From a virus, in the IMG/VR virus record IMGVR_UViG_3300048672_000152, positions 1 through 64,000 of that record: a DNA stretch of 64,000 nucleotides; one strand, 5' to 3'. Numbering within the stretch: the stretch's first letter is position 1; each line of letters begins with the position of its first letter. Below, piece after piece: positions 11,614-44,425 of the stretch. The position numbers and the translations under genes were made by a program. The notes below the pieces were generated by a model, which was not told the DNA's origin, did not search any database, and saw only the letters and a list, made by a program, of their open reading frames with translations.

Positions 11614-12921
11614 TTATTTTACCCTAATTACACAATTATCTCCACCAACAACGACATCGTAAGCTTTCTTCATATTTACCTCAGCAGTCTCAGCATAGTC
11701 TTCTTGAACAACAACAGAATCGTGAATTGGTATTAGAATCCTGTCATCTTCAACAGCACGTTCCAACAGATAATCCATCAAACTGCTCTCGATATTCATC
11801 AGAAATGTAGCTTTCTTACTAAAGAAATAATCCATTAGATAAGCATTACGATCCATAAGCATATCCAACATTTTACGTATTACGGGAAAATCATTCCACA
11901 TTCCCTTTTCTTTTGCGTCATCAATCTTGGCTTGCATTCCAGAAGACTTCAGTTCACCGAGCGTTGCATAGTAAGCTGTATCAAAACTATCAGCGTTGAG
12001 CAAGCACATCAACCCTATCTTAGCTAGGTCTCTTAATACTTTAGGGCAGTAACCCTCAATTTCCACAGCATATACATCAAACTCTGGGGATAACTTTTGA
12101 CCAACCAGATCAGCAGCTATTCTAGGCCATAGTTGACTATAATCAAGCTCCACTGTAGGTAAGCCATTAATGTAAATCTCTCTACGATTTTGCTTGTTCA
12201 ACAACTCAGACACGTTAGAACCTGTCATAAAAATCCTACCTCCTTCTCTCAGTGATGAATTGTTATATATTTTCTTCACAGTAAAATAGAACTTGTTATC
12301 TTGAACGCTAACACTAGATTTGTCAAGAGAAGCATTGAAAGCATTTAGTACATCAACTAGGTGCTTTTCTTTTGGAGTCAAGCGTATACCTATGGGCCTT
12401 CCTTTCTCATCCCTAACTTCCAAGACACTCTCTACAGGTTTAAATTTACCACTTACTTCTGCTACCCGAGTAACGATACGTTCATCTAAGTACAGTATAC
12501 TTGACTTAAATGACTCAGGTACTGCTTTGAATTTATCTTTACCATTCTCATCAACATGGGAGAACTTGAGAACATAGTCTTCTGCACCACCTTTCTCAAT
12601 GATGGAGTTAGTAAAATTCTCTAAATAAGATAACACAATCTTCATGTTGGTGTAGCTAATCTTTCTCCCTGTGTTATTGCCATTATACACAGCAGGATTA
12701 GAATATGAACCCTCACTGAGAGTTAAGGTGATATATGGTTTACCTTTACTCACCATAGAAGCAGTATTGAGAATGATACAATAACAACATCTCTTTATGT
12801 CTGTCATTCTTTTAAGAGTAGCTTTCACATCTGTATTCTTAGTTAGATGGTCTATAACTTCTTTGTATAAGCTATCACCTATCTTACTAAGTTGCTTATT
12901 TAAGATATAATCTAATAACAT
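11614..12921 (-). CDS. compact family-A/T7-like polymerase-fold protein (copy 1)
   Basis: 435 aa. GGRIF, ELDYSQLWPR (motif A), RDLAK (motif B), MNIES, PIHDSVVV (motif C); no exonuclease domain. Confidence 0.75.
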   Translation of the reverse strand: MLLDYILNKQLSKIGDSLYKEVIDHLTKNTDVKATLKRMTDIKRCCYCIILNTASMVSKGKPYITLTLSEGSYSNPAVYNGNNTGRKISYTNMKIVLSYLENFTNSIIEKGGAEDYVLKFSHVDENGKDKFKAVPESFKSSILYLDERIVTRVAEVSGKFKPVESVLEVRDEKGRPIGIRLTPKEKHLVDVLNAFNASLDKSSVSVQDNKFYFTVKKIYNNSSLREGGRIFMTGSNVSELLNKQNRREIYINGLPTVELDYSQLWPRIAADLVGQKLSPEFDVYAVEIEGYCPKVLRDLAKIGLMCLLNADSFDTAYYATLGELKSSGMQAKIDDAKEKGMWNDFPVIRKMLDMLMDRNAYLMDYFFSKKATFLMNIESSLMDYLLERAVEDDRILIPIHDSVVVQEDYAETAEVNMKKAYDVVVGGDNCVIRVK

Positions 12922-13056
12922 TTAATCTCTAATACTCCTATAATAACTACTACAGTAAAGCCCCCTGTCGCTTCGCTCCAAGGGGTTGGGTTCCCCAATA
13001 GCAGGAATAACAGCTTAAACCTTAGTGTAGCAAGGCTTAAACCTATCATTTGCTCC

Positions 13057-13263
13057 CTATTTATACCTCACCAATACCTCAACTTCTAGCCCTACAAAGT
13101 CAGCTAACTCAAACAATTTATCATAGCTTACAGAATCAGTTTTCAACCACTGATTGACAGCCTGTCGTGTACATTGTTGATGCTTGGCTACATCAACTTG
13201 AGTGATACCTAAATCTTCCATAGCACTAATAATAGCGAACTGAATTTTATTCTTGTGTGTCAT
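13057..13263 (-). CDS. Cro/XRE-type HTH regulator
   Basis: GITQVDVAKHQQCTRQAVNQW helix-turn-helix pattern. Confidence 0.8.
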   Translation of the reverse strand: MTHKNKIQFAIISAMEDLGITQVDVAKHQQCTRQAVNQWLKTDSVSYDKLFELADFVGLEVEVLVRYK

Positions 13264-13558
13264 AACACCTCCTTTATGCTAGTAGTTTACCAGATGTTTC
13301 TGTATTGTCAAGCAAATAACTTAACCTATTACATACCTGTGTTCTGCCTCTCCACGAATTAAAGCCTTACCATACTTCCAAGACATACCTTCGACATCAG
13401 CATCACGACTAACTGACATCCGAACACCATTGAAATTAAACTTAACAAAAGCTAAATCCATACGCTGTGCTAAGTCTTTAGCTTCTGCAATAGCTTCTTC
13501 AATAGATGTACCAGCCAACACTTCCACTTCAATAGAAAAATTACTCATTACGTTCTCC

Positions 13559-19987: not shown

Positions 19988-20035
19988 AAAATAAAATTCA
20001 TATATGAGCAATTGCTCATATATGAATTTTATTTT
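19988..20035. repeat. 48-bp perfect palindrome
   Basis: AAAATAAAATTCATATATGAGCAA|TTGCTCATATATGAATTTTATTTT, checked base by base. Confidence 0.95.
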
Positions 20036-24014: not shown

Positions 24015-24039
24015 AAGCCAGCTATTAAGCTGGCTTTTT
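24015..24039 (+). terminator. intrinsic terminator ending the early block
   Basis: aagccagc-tattaa-gctggctt followed by TTT. Confidence 0.8.
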
Positions 24040-24417
24040 ATTGTCTAAAATTCAACCCTAGCAAACCCCATGCCAACATGACAAAACAGCCTAAAATTAG
24101 TGGTATATTAGAAAAATCGAAAATAGCTAAAATCAACGCTATTGCACGTATTCAGTCGAACCCTTATCAAGGTATCAAAACAGCCCTAAATTGATTGTAG
24201 GCGATTCTAGGCGCATTATAATTGATTGCTATCCTTTCAATACTTGAATTTATTGCATAAAACATGAATAAAACATACAGGATAATAAGGTTATGCAATG
24301 CAAACTTGCATATTATGCAAAATAAGGCTGTTTTACAGTGAAAAGCTATAGAAAAGCCTAGCTATTAAACATCATTAAAAATAGCAGGATATGCAATATC
24401 CTTGCCAAGTATTAATA

Positions 24418-24555
24418 CTGTATAGTTATACAGTAGTATTGAATAATCCAATAGCCTAAGCTTTTTTGCTTACCTTGCTATTAAAGTGTATATCTATCCA
24501 GTAGTGTATAAACATACAGTAGTACATAAATATACAGCACTGGATTAGTGTACAG
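24418..24555. promoter_or_regulatory. array of LexA (SOS)-box-like sites
   Basis: CTGTATAGTTATACAG (24418) and CTGGATTAGTGTACAG (24540) fit CTG-N10-CAG; near-matches at 24486, 24504 and 24522 give an exact 18-bp period. Confidence 0.75.
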
Positions 24556-25286
24556 TAGTTTTACAAATTGAATTTGTTTAAACACTAACATTAATCAATA
24601 ATCATACCAACTATTCCAACCCTTCTATACCGCATGGTACAAATCTATCCTATCCGATAAGCTTGCGTTATACTTGATTACTCAAGTAATTCTGTAATGA
24701 ATATTCATGCAATTACATTAGAATTCAATCATTTAACATAATCAGAATTAGTGGTTATCTTGTTTTATATTGCATATTACGCAGATATTTTAAACTTTCT
24801 AGAGTGATATATTCGGGGGGATATTCCTGTGTTAAACCATGATACGAACATGAACTACTGGTAGAATAACAGGATATTCGATATTTCTAATCTCAATAAC
24901 AAACTAGGCTGCATACCTTGGTATGACTCATTTTTACTAATATTTTAGATAGAAAATACCCAGATACTCCGTATCAGGAATAATATAGGATGGTACAAGG
25001 AATAGTGTCTTGATATTTGCACCAACACAGAGCATAACATCCCAATGCCTTGCATTGATATTTCATATAATAATTACGGATATTTAGCAACAAATACAAT
25101 AGGATAGGTGATATTTTATAGGAGTAATACAGGAGTAGTGCATCAATAAGGGAGTGTATAGGTATTTGGATAAATAAAAAGACAGTAACATAACATTACT
25201 GTCTCTATTTGAAGTGGCTCATAATGGCTCAATAGTGAGCCACAAGTATTAATAGTTATAGGGGAAATGACCAAAAGTGTGACATT

Positions 25287-25303
25287 GTGTGACATTGATC
25301 ACA
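25287..25303. promoter_or_regulatory. CRP-like site TGTGA-N6-TCACA
   Basis: TGTGACATTGATCACA, preceded by a direct repeat of GTGTGACATT. Confidence 0.5.
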
Positions 25304-25309
25304 CATGAC

Positions 25310-26107
25310 TTACTTCTTATTGTTAAGCCATCGACTAACTGTCTCCCTTCTTACACCTAATTCTCTAGCTATCTCTGTGTTGGAATGCCCTAGTAGTTTA
25401 AGTTTAACAGCTATTTCTTTATTAGAACTTGAGCTTATGCCTAGATGATCACCTATATGGTCTACTCTAGTTTCCGTTATTGCTTGTCTAATCTCTAACT
25501 GATTTACTTTATTTCTTAGTTCATCTAACTCACCTAATATCTTCATAGTTGTGTATGTGTTTACATACATGCTATTGATAGTTGTTGGTTTATCTAACAT
25601 ATTCAACAATCCTTCCTCCACTACTTTGGATATTTCATCAGGGACAACTAATGATGTTTGGTCTATTATCTGAGTTCTATTATAATGTTCTTTAGTTGCT
25701 ATTGACTTTAGTGTTATAGCATCTTTATTGTGTTTCTCTGCTACAACATCATAAGCTCCTTGAACAGTACCTTTATCTCTAATCAAATGCACCATACCGT
25801 CTACTCCCATCTCTGTTGTAAATCTTTCTGGTGCAACATAATCAGGGTCTTTAGAGTTCTCATATCTTTGTATTCGAGCTACGCTGATATTGATGTCTTT
25901 ACTAACCTTGATGGTTGTCTTATAATTTTGTTCTGATAACTTATCAACTATGGCTGCTTGTAGTATAGCGATACCTTCGTTATCTGGTACACGACTCAGT
26001 GCGGCCTCTATCTCAAATTGGGCATCCATTAGTTGCTCTAGTTGTTCTGCTGTAGATATTTCACCAACAGAAATAGCCCCATTAGGGGCATCTTCTTTAT
26101 CACTCAT
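25310..26107 (-). CDS. coiled-coil protein with C-terminal HTH
   Basis: GHSNTEIARELGVRRETVSRWL at the C-terminus. Confidence 0.75.
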   Translation of the reverse strand: MSDKEDAPNGAISVGEISTAEQLEQLMDAQFEIEAALSRVPDNEGIAILQAAIVDKLSEQNYKTTIKVSKDINISVARIQRYENSKDPDYVAPERFTTEMGVDGMVHLIRDKGTVQGAYDVVAEKHNKDAITLKSIATKEHYNRTQIIDQTSLVVPDEISKVVEEGLLNMLDKPTTINSMYVNTYTTMKILGELDELRNKVNQLEIRQAITETRVDHIGDHLGISSSSNKEIAVKLKLLGHSNTEIARELGVRRETVSRWLNNKK

Positions 26108-26120
26108 TTATTTACTTCCA

Positions 26121-27350
26121 TTATGAAAGATTATTGTAGAATTCTATAACATCTCTACTTGTTTTAATATTACTACTATCTACATGAGTGACAAAACTGA
26201 TATTAGATAAGTCACGTAATCTTGACAGTGCTACATATAATTGACCATTACTAAAACAACCTCTACCTACGTGTATAGCGGCTTTATCTAAAGTCATCCC
26301 TTGGCTACGGTGAATAGAGATGGCCCATCCTAGCTTGATTGGGAGTTGAATATAGACACTATCCAGCACTCGTTTGATCTTACCATCTACTCGTTGTAAC
26401 TTGTAGTTTTCCCATGTAAATGGAACTACTTCTATTTCCACTCCATTGTCTTTCATTACTTTAACAGAGTTGGGGAATAACTTAGTAACTACGCCACGCT
26501 CACCATTGACATAACCTTGTGTATTGTCATTAGCAGATATAACCACTCTACAACCTACTTTGAGTTTTAGTAGTTCTGCTACACCACATCCTTTATCCTT
26601 CCCTACAGCTTTGTATACCACCTCTTTAGATTGGATAGTGTTATACCAAATATTATTGATATTGTCTGAATCAGCATTATAACAACACAGATGTAGTGTG
26701 TCTGATGTATTCTGGTACGCACTAGCATTCTCTTGGATAGTTTGTAATGCTTGTGCAGCATCATAATTACCTTTACGAATAGCTCCTAATAAGGCTACTT
26801 GCTGCGCATCTGATTGTCTCACTACTTCAGTTAGTTCAATAGTTTCAAAGTTCCACGCTCTACTACTGAAACAGAAAGGAGAAGTATAATCTTTCTTCAA
26901 TAATGGTGCTTCTTGTTTAGGAACAATTGGTTCTAATTGGAAGAAGTCTCCGACTAACACAACTTGTAGCCCACCAAAGGGTAGTTTATTCTTCCTCACT
27001 AACTTCAATCTGAAATCAATAATGTCTAATTGCTCTGCACGTAACATACCAGCTTCATCAATAACGATACGTTTGATATTTGATTCTACACCATAGAAAT
27101 CCTTAAAGCCTTTAGGTAGTTTAGTCCATTCAGAGAGTAATGGATATTCTCTCGGTAAACCAAAAGCAGAGTGGCAAGTGACTCCGCCAATGTTAATGGC
27201 TGCAATACCTGTAGGGGCGCACAACACTGTATCTTCATCTAGTATTTGTTTGATTACATAAGATTTCCCCACACCACCTGCACCAAAAATAAATACATTC
27301 TTTCCAGACTTAATAGCTTCTAATGCTTGCTGTTGTTTTTCAATAATCAA
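26121..27350 (-). CDS. Pif1/RecD-like SF1B helicase
   Basis: GAGGVGKS, APTGIAA, VIDEAGM, PFGGLQVVLVGDFFQLEP, WAISIHRSQGMTLD, YVALSR. Confidence 0.92.
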   Translation of the reverse strand: MIIEKQQQALEAIKSGKNVFIFGAGGVGKSYVIKQILDEDTVLCAPTGIAAINIGGVTCHSAFGLPREYPLLSEWTKLPKGFKDFYGVESNIKRIVIDEAGMLRAEQLDIIDFRLKLVRKNKLPFGGLQVVLVGDFFQLEPIVPKQEAPLLKKDYTSPFCFSSRAWNFETIELTEVVRQSDAQQVALLGAIRKGNYDAAQALQTIQENASAYQNTSDTLHLCCYNADSDNINNIWYNTIQSKEVVYKAVGKDKGCGVAELLKLKVGCRVVISANDNTQGYVNGERGVVTKLFPNSVKVMKDNGVEIEVVPFTWENYKLQRVDGKIKRVLDSVYIQLPIKLGWAISIHRSQGMTLDKAAIHVGRGCFSNGQLYVALSRLRDLSNISFVTHVDSSNIKTSRDVIEFYNNLS

Positions 27351-41273: not shown

Positions 41274-43120
41274 TATAATTTCCCCTCTCGTTTTAAATCT
41301 TGGTATCTCATTTCAACTTCCCTGTAGTACACTACCTTGTCGTTACTGTATTCTCCAATATTCCAACCATGTTTATCATGTAAATAGAAATATCTCTCAT
41401 AATACCATGTATCACTCCAAACACCATTGAAATTAGTATCTTTAATAAATTGGTCAATCAATTCCATTGAATGTGAATAAGTAGGTGTGTCTAAGTAGTA
41501 AATTACACATTCTTCTTTCTTATTAATTAAATCTTTACGGTGTTCACGTAAACTTGCAAGCTGCAACTCTAACTCTTTAATTTGAAAATCAACAACTTCA
41601 ATGGCTTGTGTATATTTATTGAAACCTTCCTCAAGGATAATTTTCATATCCATTACTCCATCTCCTTCAACACATCTGTTAATAACTTAATCTGGCGTTT
41701 AACTCTAGCTACAGGACACATGAAATCAGTTTGATACCAACTACCTTCAATTTTGTTATCTTCTTGTTCCGACCACCAATTAGCAATCTCAAACAACTCA
41801 TTCACTTCTCCTATTGTCAGCTTAAATGTATTCCCAAAGTCAGTAATAATATGGAATACTTCAATAGTTTCTGTAAACTCATCGTTTAGTACAGATTTCC
41901 TAAGTGTATATGTCTTGGTTTCTTTGCTGATAACAAACCCATTACCACAACGCTGACCATCTTTAGTAGCTAAAGCCATCCCAACGATAGGTGTAAATGC
42001 TCGATTAATTGGTTTCATTTGTGTTCACCTCGATTAATTCAACATCATAGTTATCACCCAAGTAATTTCTACAGTAAGATTCTAACATATCCTTAGCTAC
42101 TAAAGGGTATTGTGTTGTCCCTACTGTGTAAGCCCATGTCTCATCCCATACTTCATATAGATTAGTTTGTGGGTCAAACGTAATTTCACCATTTTTAGTT
42201 ACTTTAATTAAACTCATATATTTCTCCTTATTTAAACCTCAATTTTAAGCTATGTACAAGCGTGTACAAGCCACTCTATTCTTACCCAATACGATTTATC
42301 ATCTTACGTATAATAACACCCTTCTCAACGCTTGTACAGCGTTTAAATGCTATATGCGATGTATTATTTCTTTATAGGGTATTTAGAAATTATATTTTCA
42401 CTTATTCAGCTATTCTGAAACGCTAGTTTCTAATTCTTTCTTGATACCATCCAACACTTCCATCACCCACCAATCATCAGCAAAGGTTTTCTTGGAATTC
42501 ATTACATCGTATATGTTCTTCTGAAAGAAGTCAAGTGTTCTGTACTCTGGTAATGCTACAAATGTGTATATGCTGTTATATGGAATATGCGCGTACATTC
42601 TGGTGAGACTTAGTAGCTCTAGGATTAGTTGGTTCATGTTAATATCTCCTCAATTTCAATTTGCACACTGTACAGGAAGACAATGGGATTGTCAATAGGT
42701 ATTTTGTTGTTGACATTTGGAATTTGGTGGTGTAGAGTGTGGACTTGTTAATTGATGGAGGTGTTTATCTCACATATCTGTGATTTCACCGTATTCGAGT
42801 AGACACTTACCTATTAGGTGTTAAAATATAAGCATAAGGAGAACATTATGACTAATGAAGAAATTATTGAGAGTATTGCAAACTGGTACGAACTTCCTGT
42901 TGAGCAAGTGGCTTTGTTATGGAGTGCATTTCAGTGGGTGTCTGATAGTGATTTACAGCAAGTGGTTAGAGCTACTGTTACTCAATTTATTCAAGATAAG
43001 TTGGTGTAGTTCGACACACTAAATGAAACCTCTGTATCCTTAGTCTCTCTAAGGCTGTAGAGGTTTTTATTATATGTTTTATCTCTTATTGGATGTTGGT
43101 ATGGAGGATAGGTATATTGG

Positions 43121-44425
43121 TTGTATTGGATAGATTATAAGATAAGTAATGAGATGAAAGAAGTTAGTAGTAAGTATTATACCGAGTACGTAGATTATTT
43201 ATCTAAGTTTAATGAAGTTAAGTTAACAATTAATAAACTTACTAAGATAAGACAAGCTGTAGATTGTCTGTTCTATAACATTCAATACAGCTTAAAAGGT
43301 GATACGATCATAGTCACTAGAGATAGGAATGATTTTAGTAGACCACTAATCTATAATGGCAGGGTAGTTAATCGTAAGGTAAGCTATGAGTATACTATGT
43401 CATTATTCTCTTGGTTACATGCTCAAGGTTATGCTACTAATGAGATTGGTTTAGTGGATAATTGGGTGATGAAGGGTGGTGAATGGACACCGTTAACCAT
43501 TAAACAAAGTAAACTGATATTATCTGACCAACTTATGAGGGATGTCAATACTGTACTTATAGACAAAAAGAATGTACCTCCAGTAGAGAATGTTATTCGT
43601 ATCCGTGATGAGAGTAAGAATTATGTCACTAAGCGTTTAGGTGAATATCAGCAACACCTGTGTAAGTTACTTAAAGAATACAACCATTTGTCTAAGAGTT
43701 TTATTTTAGAATCATGCGGTAAAGAATTTGACATTCAGGTAGCAAAGGTGTACAATCAATCTTCCTTCCAGAAGGGTGGAAGGACTTATGTTATTGGGGG
43801 AGGAAGTGAAGTGTTAGAGAGTGAAATCAGAAGTCGATTAACTGTTGATGGTGAAAAGACTGTTGAATGTGATTATAAGAGTTTACATGCTCGTCTTGTT
43901 GCTACTGTAGTTGGTACACATATCCCACTAGACCATGACCCTTATCAACTGACTTTGGATGGGTATGACAACAAAGTGCTGCGTAAGATATGTAAGTTGC
44001 TTGTCCTGTGTATGTTTAATGCTAGTAGTAAGCAGAGTGCTATTTCAGCAGTTAACAAAGAAATCAACGAAACATCGTATGTCGATGAGAATGGGAATGA
44101 TATTCCAATCAGAGATTATTGGTTTAAAGAAGGTTTAGCTCCAAAGTATTTAGAGTTGAAATACATTGCGGATTTATTGTTAGAACACAACCCTTATATG
44201 AAAGGCCATGCTTTTACTGGATGTGGTATGGATCTACAGAATTTAGATTCACGTATGATGGATATTGTGGTAGATTATTTCACTAATAATGGGGAGTTCT
44301 GTTTACCTGTGCATGATTCTATTGTTGTTCGTGAAACTCTAAAAGACCAAGCAATCACTGTAATGTATGAAGCATATCTACAAGTTATGGGTAATAACGA
44401 TAATTGTATTGTGGATGTTAAATAA
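43121..44425 (+). CDS. compact family-A/T7-like polymerase-fold protein (copy 2)
   Basis: 434 aa. GGRTY, ECDYKSLHAR, RKICK, QNLDS, PVHDSIVV; paralog of 11614..12921 (both share YNG....RK.SY, K.YN.SS, G.DNC). Confidence 0.75.
   Translation: MYWIDYKISNEMKEVSSKYYTEYVDYLSKFNEVKLTINKLTKIRQAVDCLFYNIQYSLKGDTIIVTRDRNDFSRPLIYNGRVVNRKVSYEYTMSLFSWLHAQGYATNEIGLVDNWVMKGGEWTPLTIKQSKLILSDQLMRDVNTVLIDKKNVPPVENVIRIRDESKNYVTKRLGEYQQHLCKLLKEYNHLSKSFILESCGKEFDIQVAKVYNQSSFQKGGRTYVIGGGSEVLESEIRSRLTVDGEKTVECDYKSLHARLVATVVGTHIPLDHDPYQLTLDGYDNKVLRKICKLLVLCMFNASSKQSAISAVNKEINETSYVDENGNDIPIRDYWFKEGLAPKYLELKYIADLLLEHNPYMKGHAFTGCGMDLQNLDSRMMDIVVDYFTNNGEFCLPVHDSIVVRETLKDQAITVMYEAYLQVMGNNDNCIVDVK

Follow-up and report, generated by a model that had tools for sequence, protein, structure and literature searches.

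Predicted host LexA operators in a gene-free gap between converging operons of a V22-like marine myophage

Introduction

What would a near-consensus SOS operator, followed by a phased array of similar boxes, be doing where two phage operons converge and there is no gene for it to regulate? The question is raised by a locus in the window analysed here, which is the first 64 kb (64,000 nucleotides) of the 93,452-bp IMG/VR virus genome IMGVR_UViG_3300048672_000152 (called g0); positions are those of the window unless another contig is named. The original prediction for this DNA described a non-coding platform for host transcription factors, acting either as a sponge that titrates LexA and other regulators or as a zone that paces genome entry or shields a genome end.

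The LexA site of gammaproteobacteria is CTGT-N8-ACAG, and the use of host LexA by temperate phages is textbook knowledge. For lytic marine myophages there is hardly any record of such use, and none that concerns a gene-free region. Our literature searches found no description of LexA operators in a gene-free lytic-phage region of this kind, and a term search of the text of the paper on Alteromonas phage V22, the closest cultured relative, found no non-coding RNA reported and no mention of the intergenic region, a promoter or an origin.

Results

Source genome, relatives and probable host

The source genome encodes a family-A DNA polymerase, a primase-helicase, a Dda-like helicase, a large terminase, a portal and a major head protein, a gene content of the lytic myophage type. 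Its closest cultured relative is V22 (Myoalterovirus; 92,760 bp; helicases 42% identical), and sequence comparison places it as a marine myophage that is V22-like but distant from V22 itself. The nearest relatives of its large terminase are found in Pseudoalteromonas, Vibrio and rV5-like phages (~36–40% identity). Because V22 and these phages are the nearest relatives, the host is most likely a marine gammaproteobacterium; the LexA consensus that we scored is the gammaproteobacterial one. V22 has been described as strictly lytic (PMC7289586), and the source phage itself looks lytic.

Alignment-based scans for relatives recovered a complete sister genome (IMGVR_UViG_3300044732_000704, called g1; 93,434 bp), which is collinear with g0 and encodes an HTH protein 52% identical to that beside the gap, as well as the contigs L148, L149 and L150. 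Homologues of the g0 HTH protein occur in metagenomes, the closest at 94% and 80%. Scanning for relatives of g0 returned one truncated contig from metagenomes and no match from genomes, while the gap DNA matched none of 50,697 phage records and the corresponding V22 DNA matched only V22 itself among phage records. An HTH protein of the g1 type (cluster P0007) is also found on a contig at NCBI whose length, 186,720 bp, is almost exactly double that of the phage genome and suggests a concatemer assembly.

A gene-free gap between converging operons

The locus was originally described as a gene-free gap between convergent operons, and this description is borne out: positions 24045–25305 contain no credible ORF and lie between the terminators of two converging operons, one on each side. 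The borders and flanking genes are:

24015–24036, + strand: intrinsic terminator with a hairpin usable on both strands; closes the + strand early operon and forms the left gap border
25178–25206, − strand: intrinsic terminator of the HTH-helicase operon; right border of the variable part of the gap
25310–26107, − strand: flanking gene for a 265-aa all-helical protein with a C-terminal HTH
26121–27350, − strand: flanking gene for the Dda-like helicase, 42% identical to the V22 helicase

No small ORF was conserved between the g0 and g1 gaps, and an Rfam search of three gaps gave terminator and leader look-alikes only, with no real match. The small early genes on the + strand carry consensus sigma70 promoters, which indicates that host RNA polymerase is in use. 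The HTH protein beside the gap has no recognisable initiator fold; its AlphaFold model is of low confidence, Foldseek matched the C-terminal HTH alone, and the ESM Atlas was uninformative. Elsewhere in the window, a perfect 44-bp hairpin or palindrome (19990–20033), scored as a bidirectional terminator, sits in a 460-bp non-coding stretch before the second early block.

LexA-type boxes

Five LexA-type boxes were located in the gap:

24416–24435, no strand: LexA box 1, a near-consensus SOS operator with 18/20 matches to the 20-bp consensus and a perfect core
24484–24557, no strand: four contiguous LexA-like boxes with an exact 18-bp period (20-mers from 24484, 24502, 24520 and 24538)

Box 1 had been predicted as a near-consensus SOS box and proved to be the best match in the genome; only two perfect CTGT-N8-ACAG cores occur in the 93,452 bp, and it holds one of them. 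The four further boxes, which begin 68 bp after box 1, do keep the exact 18-bp spacing claimed for them. With consensus scores of 14–17/20 (16, 17, 15 and 14 in order) and core matches of 5–7/8 (6, 7, 5 and 7), they are degenerate. When the consensus was scanned across the 93 kb, ranks 1, 2 and 3 all fell inside one 142-bp stretch of the gap, the remaining two of the five boxes scored 15/20 and 14/20, and no LexA-grade site was found elsewhere in the g0 genome. A scan for the exact box-1 pattern gave no match.

The density of LexA-type sites also exceeds background. We simulated 20,000 sequences with a first-order Markov model of the gap: none reached a maximum of at least 18/20 (P < 5e-5), and 0.045% had at least five sites at or above 14/20 (P = 4.5e-4). 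Pairwise identity among the five boxes is 0.79 in the arms versus 0.40 in the central 4 bp. Conserved arms with variable centres are expected of a dimeric palindromic operator under selection rather than of a recent neutral repeat duplication, which suggests that the array is under ongoing selection as a palindromic operator. The right half-sites of the array boxes are good and the left ones weaker, mostly beginning with G versus the C preferred by LexA, and the array boxes would bind with lower affinity than box 1. We predict that all five boxes are operators for host LexA. In g0 and g1 alike we found no gene for a LexA DNA-binding domain, none for an S24 peptidase and none for a sigma54 activator domain, so that the readers of the boxes would have to be host proteins.

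One promoter-like element accompanies box 1:

24442–24447, + strand: candidate −10 hexamer AATAAT, paired with TGTATA at 24419 across a 17-bp spacer; putative weak sigma70-type promoter

The candidate matches 8/12 consensus bases, and box 1 covers its −35 element and spacer. A stricter consensus promoter scan found none at the LexA boxes, and no gene lies downstream of them in the gap.

Sigma54-like, CRP and palindromic motifs

Further motifs lie on both sides of the LexA boxes:

24061–24075, − strand: sigma54-type −24/−12 look-alike TGGCA-N6-TTGC, one of three copies in 93 kb
24393–24407, − strand: second sigma54-type look-alike; overlaps a 17-bp palindrome (24386–24402) and abuts LexA box 1
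24306–24320, no strand: 15-bp palindrome without mismatch, from the TTGCAT/ATGCAA family; the V22 gap has a similar one
24563–24577, no strand: perfect 7+1+7 palindrome right after the LexA array
25277–25304, no strand: two copies of a 10-bp unit and a third that is inverted and partial, immediately downstream of the HTH stop codon; identical in g1

The sigma54 sites and the CRP consensus that had been predicted are both present, and as motifs the sigma54-like element and the CRP core are real and non-random. TGGCA-N6-TTGC occurs three times in the genome and twice in the gap, both times on the − strand, against an expectation of ~0.4 per genome that we estimated from base composition; three of its four V22 copies lie in the V22 gap, and the g1 gap has none. 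Part of the motif is itself palindromic, so the element may be a site for another protein. The CRP core TGTGA-N6-TCACA is found once in the genome, at 25288–25303, and is conserved in g1, but the full 22-bp match is ordinary and the spacing to the nearest −10-like hexamer is non-canonical. The core is formed within the triple 10-bp repeat at 25277–25304, whose flanks have diverged in g1; this repeat might fold into alternative RNA hairpins or serve as the binding site of a protein. Scanning for the conserved 10-bp-repeat pattern matched one contig, which was unrelated. The same 10-bp repeat is seen on L008, an unrelated low-GC viral contig (1925–1990 and 2080–2140), with Fur-box-like repeats nearby, which is probably a coincidence.

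The palindromes and regulator names first assigned to the gap fared less evenly. The palindrome at 24306–24320 is perfect and that at 24770–24783 has one mismatch, while the one placed at about 24245 is a half-site only. The TTGCAT/ATGCAA family is strongly enriched in the gap and includes a related copy at about 24697–24712, which had been taken for an ARG-box-like element; it lacks the 4-bp spacer and its ARG score is ordinary. No test supported the Lrp label, and NtrC-like and ArgR-like matches, which stay within the genome background, were discarded. The left gap also holds a short repeat family with two direct copies and one inverted (24082–24095, 24176–24190 and 24322–24336; core 24177–24185).

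The GATATTT block and the right part of the gap

The right part of the gap is marked by short repeats and conserved blocks:

24784–25116, + strand: six same-strand GATATTT and two GATATTC around AT-rich DNA
24829–24840, + strand: 12-bp block conserved with g1 inside otherwise unalignable sequence
25214–25243, no strand: hairpin, position conserved in g1

GATATTT starts at 24784, 24880, 25012, 25057, 25079 and 25110, about 50-fold over its genome rate; each copy is only 7 bp long and the spacing in g0 is irregular (22–132 bp). The repeat is conserved as a motif class, with six copies in the g0 and g1 gaps, five in V22 and four in L150, and the six copies common to g0 and g1 lie in the right 300–330 bp of each gap. 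A scan with a triple GATATTT pattern gave at least 117 matches, which were unrelated. Some 110 bp past the HTH stop codon, comprising the hairpin and the 10-bp repeats, are conserved between g0 and g1.

We also ranked windows of 80–150 bp by ease of melting in each genome: the g1 gap holds the top two, the V22 gap ranks in the top three and the g0 gap in the top five. No DnaA boxes were found in the gap, and RNA folding of 24780–25210 on both strands was not better than that of shuffled sequences (z = −0.8 and +0.2). A CsrB-like GGA-repeat RNA was considered and rejected, the GGA density of the gap being unexceptional compared with the rest of the genome.

Homologous gaps and exchange of LexA for Fur

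Syntenic counterparts of the gap exist in g1, V22, L150 and L149. Those of g1 and V22 are delimited as follows:

g1 contig 43112–43892: gap between the same converging operons as in g0
V22, NC_048847 69,411–70,986 (L027 19411–20986): unannotated 1.6-kb gap at the same convergent junction

Apart from short blocks, the g0 and g1 gaps are mostly unalignable, and they differ in the repressor sites that they carry. The g1 gap has no LexA boxes, and the best g1 match to the LexA consensus (15/20) lies elsewhere in that genome. In their place are three near-consensus Fur boxes within 132 bp (contig 43361–43492; L003 9190–9321), which make up three of the six best genome-wide 7-1-7 Fur matches, including the best one. 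Two of them lie on −10-like hexamers with identical −35-like hexamers 17 bp upstream, facing the repeat block, and the third abuts the first GATATTT repeat.

The V22 gap contains, besides its five GATATTT, three sigma54-like or palindromic elements and 11-bp-phased TGTCA repeats, and in V22 the HTH gene does not border the gap. L150 is a V22-like metagenomic contig of 94 kb whose gap is 78% identical to that of V22, with cassette-sized indels. We considered Pho boxes for the V22 gap, where the 11-bp-phased TGTCA repeats are unique to the gap, but their core is changed in L150 and the assignment was not relied on. In L149 a 1.3-kb gap after the HTH gene holds the genome's best Fur-variant site; several CT-rich (anti-Shine-Dalgarno-like) repeats lie on one strand of this gap at 12380–12640.

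An HNH homing-endonuclease gene occupies the gap position in L148. The last two early genes of that contig have repeated promoter/5′-UTR cassettes with perfect CTGT-N8-ACAG cores around the ribosome-binding sites, which may be LexA boxes or translational stem-loops; the endonuclease gene and the cassettes together fall within 12174–13370 and 13800–14120 of L148. The module is thus widespread, being syntenic in relatives, but not universal, given the HNH gene at its position in L148, and clear host-repressor clusters were found in only two independent lineages. The synteny, the Fur cluster of g1 and the lack of phage-encoded readers together strengthen the view of the gap as a non-coding platform for host regulators.

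Discussion

Proposed mechanism

In both g0 and g1, the LexA or Fur boxes overlap weak promoter-like hexamers that face the conserved repeat block. The interpretation that we put forward as the simplest one, tentatively and from sequence patterns, is that the host-repressor operators serve as a sensor, through which non-coding transcription from the gap toward this block would be gated. The gap would be a non-coding module with a control function, conserved among V22-like marine myophages, and its left and central part would hold the operators of a global regulator of the host, in g0 the five predicted LexA sites. In an undamaged cell, host LexA would sit on the boxes and block the weak rightward promoter, where binding, promoter and direction are all predicted, and the four-box array, at ~+33 to +102, might serve as auxiliary operators or as a roadblock. 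DNA damage would lead, through RecA-driven cleavage of LexA, to rightward non-coding transcription into the GATATTT/AT-rich block at 24784–25116, beside the replication genes. In g1, Fur would take the same role and report iron starvation.

Such transcription could activate an origin-like element, interfere in antisense with expression of the HTH-helicase operon, or yield a non-coding RNA; the first option fits the finding that the repeat block has some of the most easily melted DNA in these genomes. One strong site with several weak ones is the pattern of a regulated operator set, and the sigma54-like element on the opposite strand beside box 1 allows a different wiring. Points that speak against the sensor reading are the weakness of the candidate promoter, which the stricter scan did not pick up, the lack of a downstream gene, the unremarkable RNA folding with no Rfam match, and the restriction of clear repressor clusters to two lineages. 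Lytic phages of the g0 type probably read host stress at this gap. That sister virulent phages have wired different stress repressors of their hosts, LexA in g0 and Fur in two other lineages, into one conserved non-coding module, and that this module either switches replication in response to stress or acts, through its copy number, as a decoy to open the matching host regulon, is a reading to which we give only a small chance.

Alternative explanations

In the second most likely reading, although rather unlikely in itself, the repeat block would act in cis as a DNA element of the phage, namely an origin, terminus or packaging signal, and the host regulators beside it would be accessories with an architectural or gating role on DNA and not on RNA. 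Same-strand short repeats do flank the most easily melted DNA, next to the helicase/HTH replication module, and they have been kept as a class in three lineages while the surrounding sequence has not. On the other side, the repeats measure no more than 7 bp and their spacing is irregular (22–132 bp), the gap lacks DnaA boxes, and replication from a convergent junction would drive forks head-on into both operons. The V22 HTH gene does not adjoin the gap, and the position is taken by a homing-endonuclease gene in L148, both of which speak against such an element. As to a terminus, reports on rV5-like phages, which are among the nearest terminase relatives, describe headful packaging or circular permutation and so speak against fixed ends (PMC8407724, PMC13211470). 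We found no terminal repeat in g0, and a 127-bp repeat in g1 was taken as an assembly overlap. Fixed genome ends in the gap are therefore unlikely. Nothing supports the injection ratchet, T5-like stop or end shield that had been proposed, the phage being a V22-like myovirus whose terminase relatives include phages reported as headful or permuted.

A sponge, in which sites without a local target on hundreds of replicating genome copies would titrate LexA (Fur in g1) and so derepress SOS or iron-uptake genes in the phage's favour, is somewhat less likely again. Operators in multiple copies are well known to titrate Fur, as in the Fur titration assay, there is no gene to regulate where the sites lie, and a swap between global repressors at this one locus would fit a choice of which regulon to open. 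A decoy would be expected to maximise both the number and the affinity of its sites; the gap offers one high-affinity and four degenerate sites, the rest of the genome adds none of LexA grade, and the g1 boxes coincide with promoter-like hexamers oriented to the repeat block. No result supported the LexA sponge as first proposed, since one strong site with four weak ones is the layout of an operator set.

The sites could also be remnants of a plastic junction at which operator cassettes and mobile genes turn over, a gene once controlled by LexA having been lost, which we regard as quite improbable. The array, with its conserved arms and variable centres, suggests ongoing selection, and box 1 is nearly perfect, neither of which suits a relic. 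The idea draws on the cassette-sized indels between the V22 and L150 gaps, on the g0 and g1 gaps being unalignable save for short blocks, and on L148 with its HNH gene and its CTGT-N8-ACAG cores within repeated promoter/5′-UTR cassettes.

Weakest of these is the view that a DNA-binding protein of the phage uses the 18-bp repeats as iterons, their resemblance to SOS boxes being a coincidence, which is very improbable: a tandem 18-bp period, an HTH protein encoded next door and left half-sites that mostly start with G and not with the C preferred by LexA are set against an 18/20 match (P < 5e-5), agreement of every conserved position with a LexA contact (flank and spacer preferences included), the lack of further such sites in the genome that would make a phage regulon, and Fur boxes instead of these repeats in g1. 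A lysis-lysogeny switch of the GIL01 type was rejected, as terminators of converging operons enclose the boxes, the phage encodes neither an S24 nor a LexA-like protein, and V22 has been described as strictly lytic (PMC7289586).

Significance

The locus differs from what is known in three respects: it is gene-free and enclosed by converging terminators, its array is large and strictly phased, and LexA is exchanged for Fur at a syntenic module. LexA and Fur at the same module suggest that virulent phages may tune a conserved cis-element to different host stresses, and both UV or DNA damage and iron limitation are ecologically central in the sea. If host-repressor operators are indeed plugged into this module, the gap would represent a modular, DNA-only interface to host state in lytic phages. 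Because V22 is in culture and has a homologous gap, the idea is directly testable.

Comparison with known systems

The gap resembles the T5 injection-stop region in being repeat-rich non-coding DNA of a virulent phage, but the source phage has no T5-like gene content and its gap lies between the early and replication modules, not at a terminal repeat. Closer parallels are found among SOS operators. In colicin operons, recN and lexA, two or three close CTGT-N8-ACAG boxes give tight cooperative repression; these bacterial SOS genes have tandem boxes like those of g0, whereas the g0 array has no downstream gene. To our knowledge, four contiguous boxes with a strict 18-bp period and a fifth 68 bp away, without a downstream gene, correspond to no described layout.

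CTXphi and coliphage 186 tum are LexA-linked phage systems. A further LexA-dependent switch is known from the tectiviruses GIL01 and Bam35 (PMC4551915, PMC6182141). As predicted for g0, GIL01 and Bam35 carry several adjacent operators for host LexA on the phage genome, which couple a phage decision to the SOS state. GIL01/Bam35, CTXphi and 186 are temperate and their boxes overlap promoters of defined genes, with GIL01 also needing the co-factor gp7, whereas g0 looks lytic and has five boxes, no downstream gene and an exchange for Fur in its sister genome.

For the possible output, the nearest counterparts are the transcription-activated origins of lambda (ori), T4 (oriF/oriG) and T7 (primary origin). 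There, as would be the case in g0, transcription from a promoter enters AT-rich DNA that contains repeats and lies next to replication genes, although the g0 repeats are only 7 bp long. We know of no gating by a host stress repressor at the lambda, T4 or T7 origins, and of no mapped origin in the phage group of g0. Lytic marine cyanophages, which carry host PhoB and NtcA boxes, are likewise virulent marine phages that borrow host stress regulators; the stress read there is that of nutrients and the boxes precede auxiliary metabolic genes, whereas the g0 boxes lie in a gene-free module.
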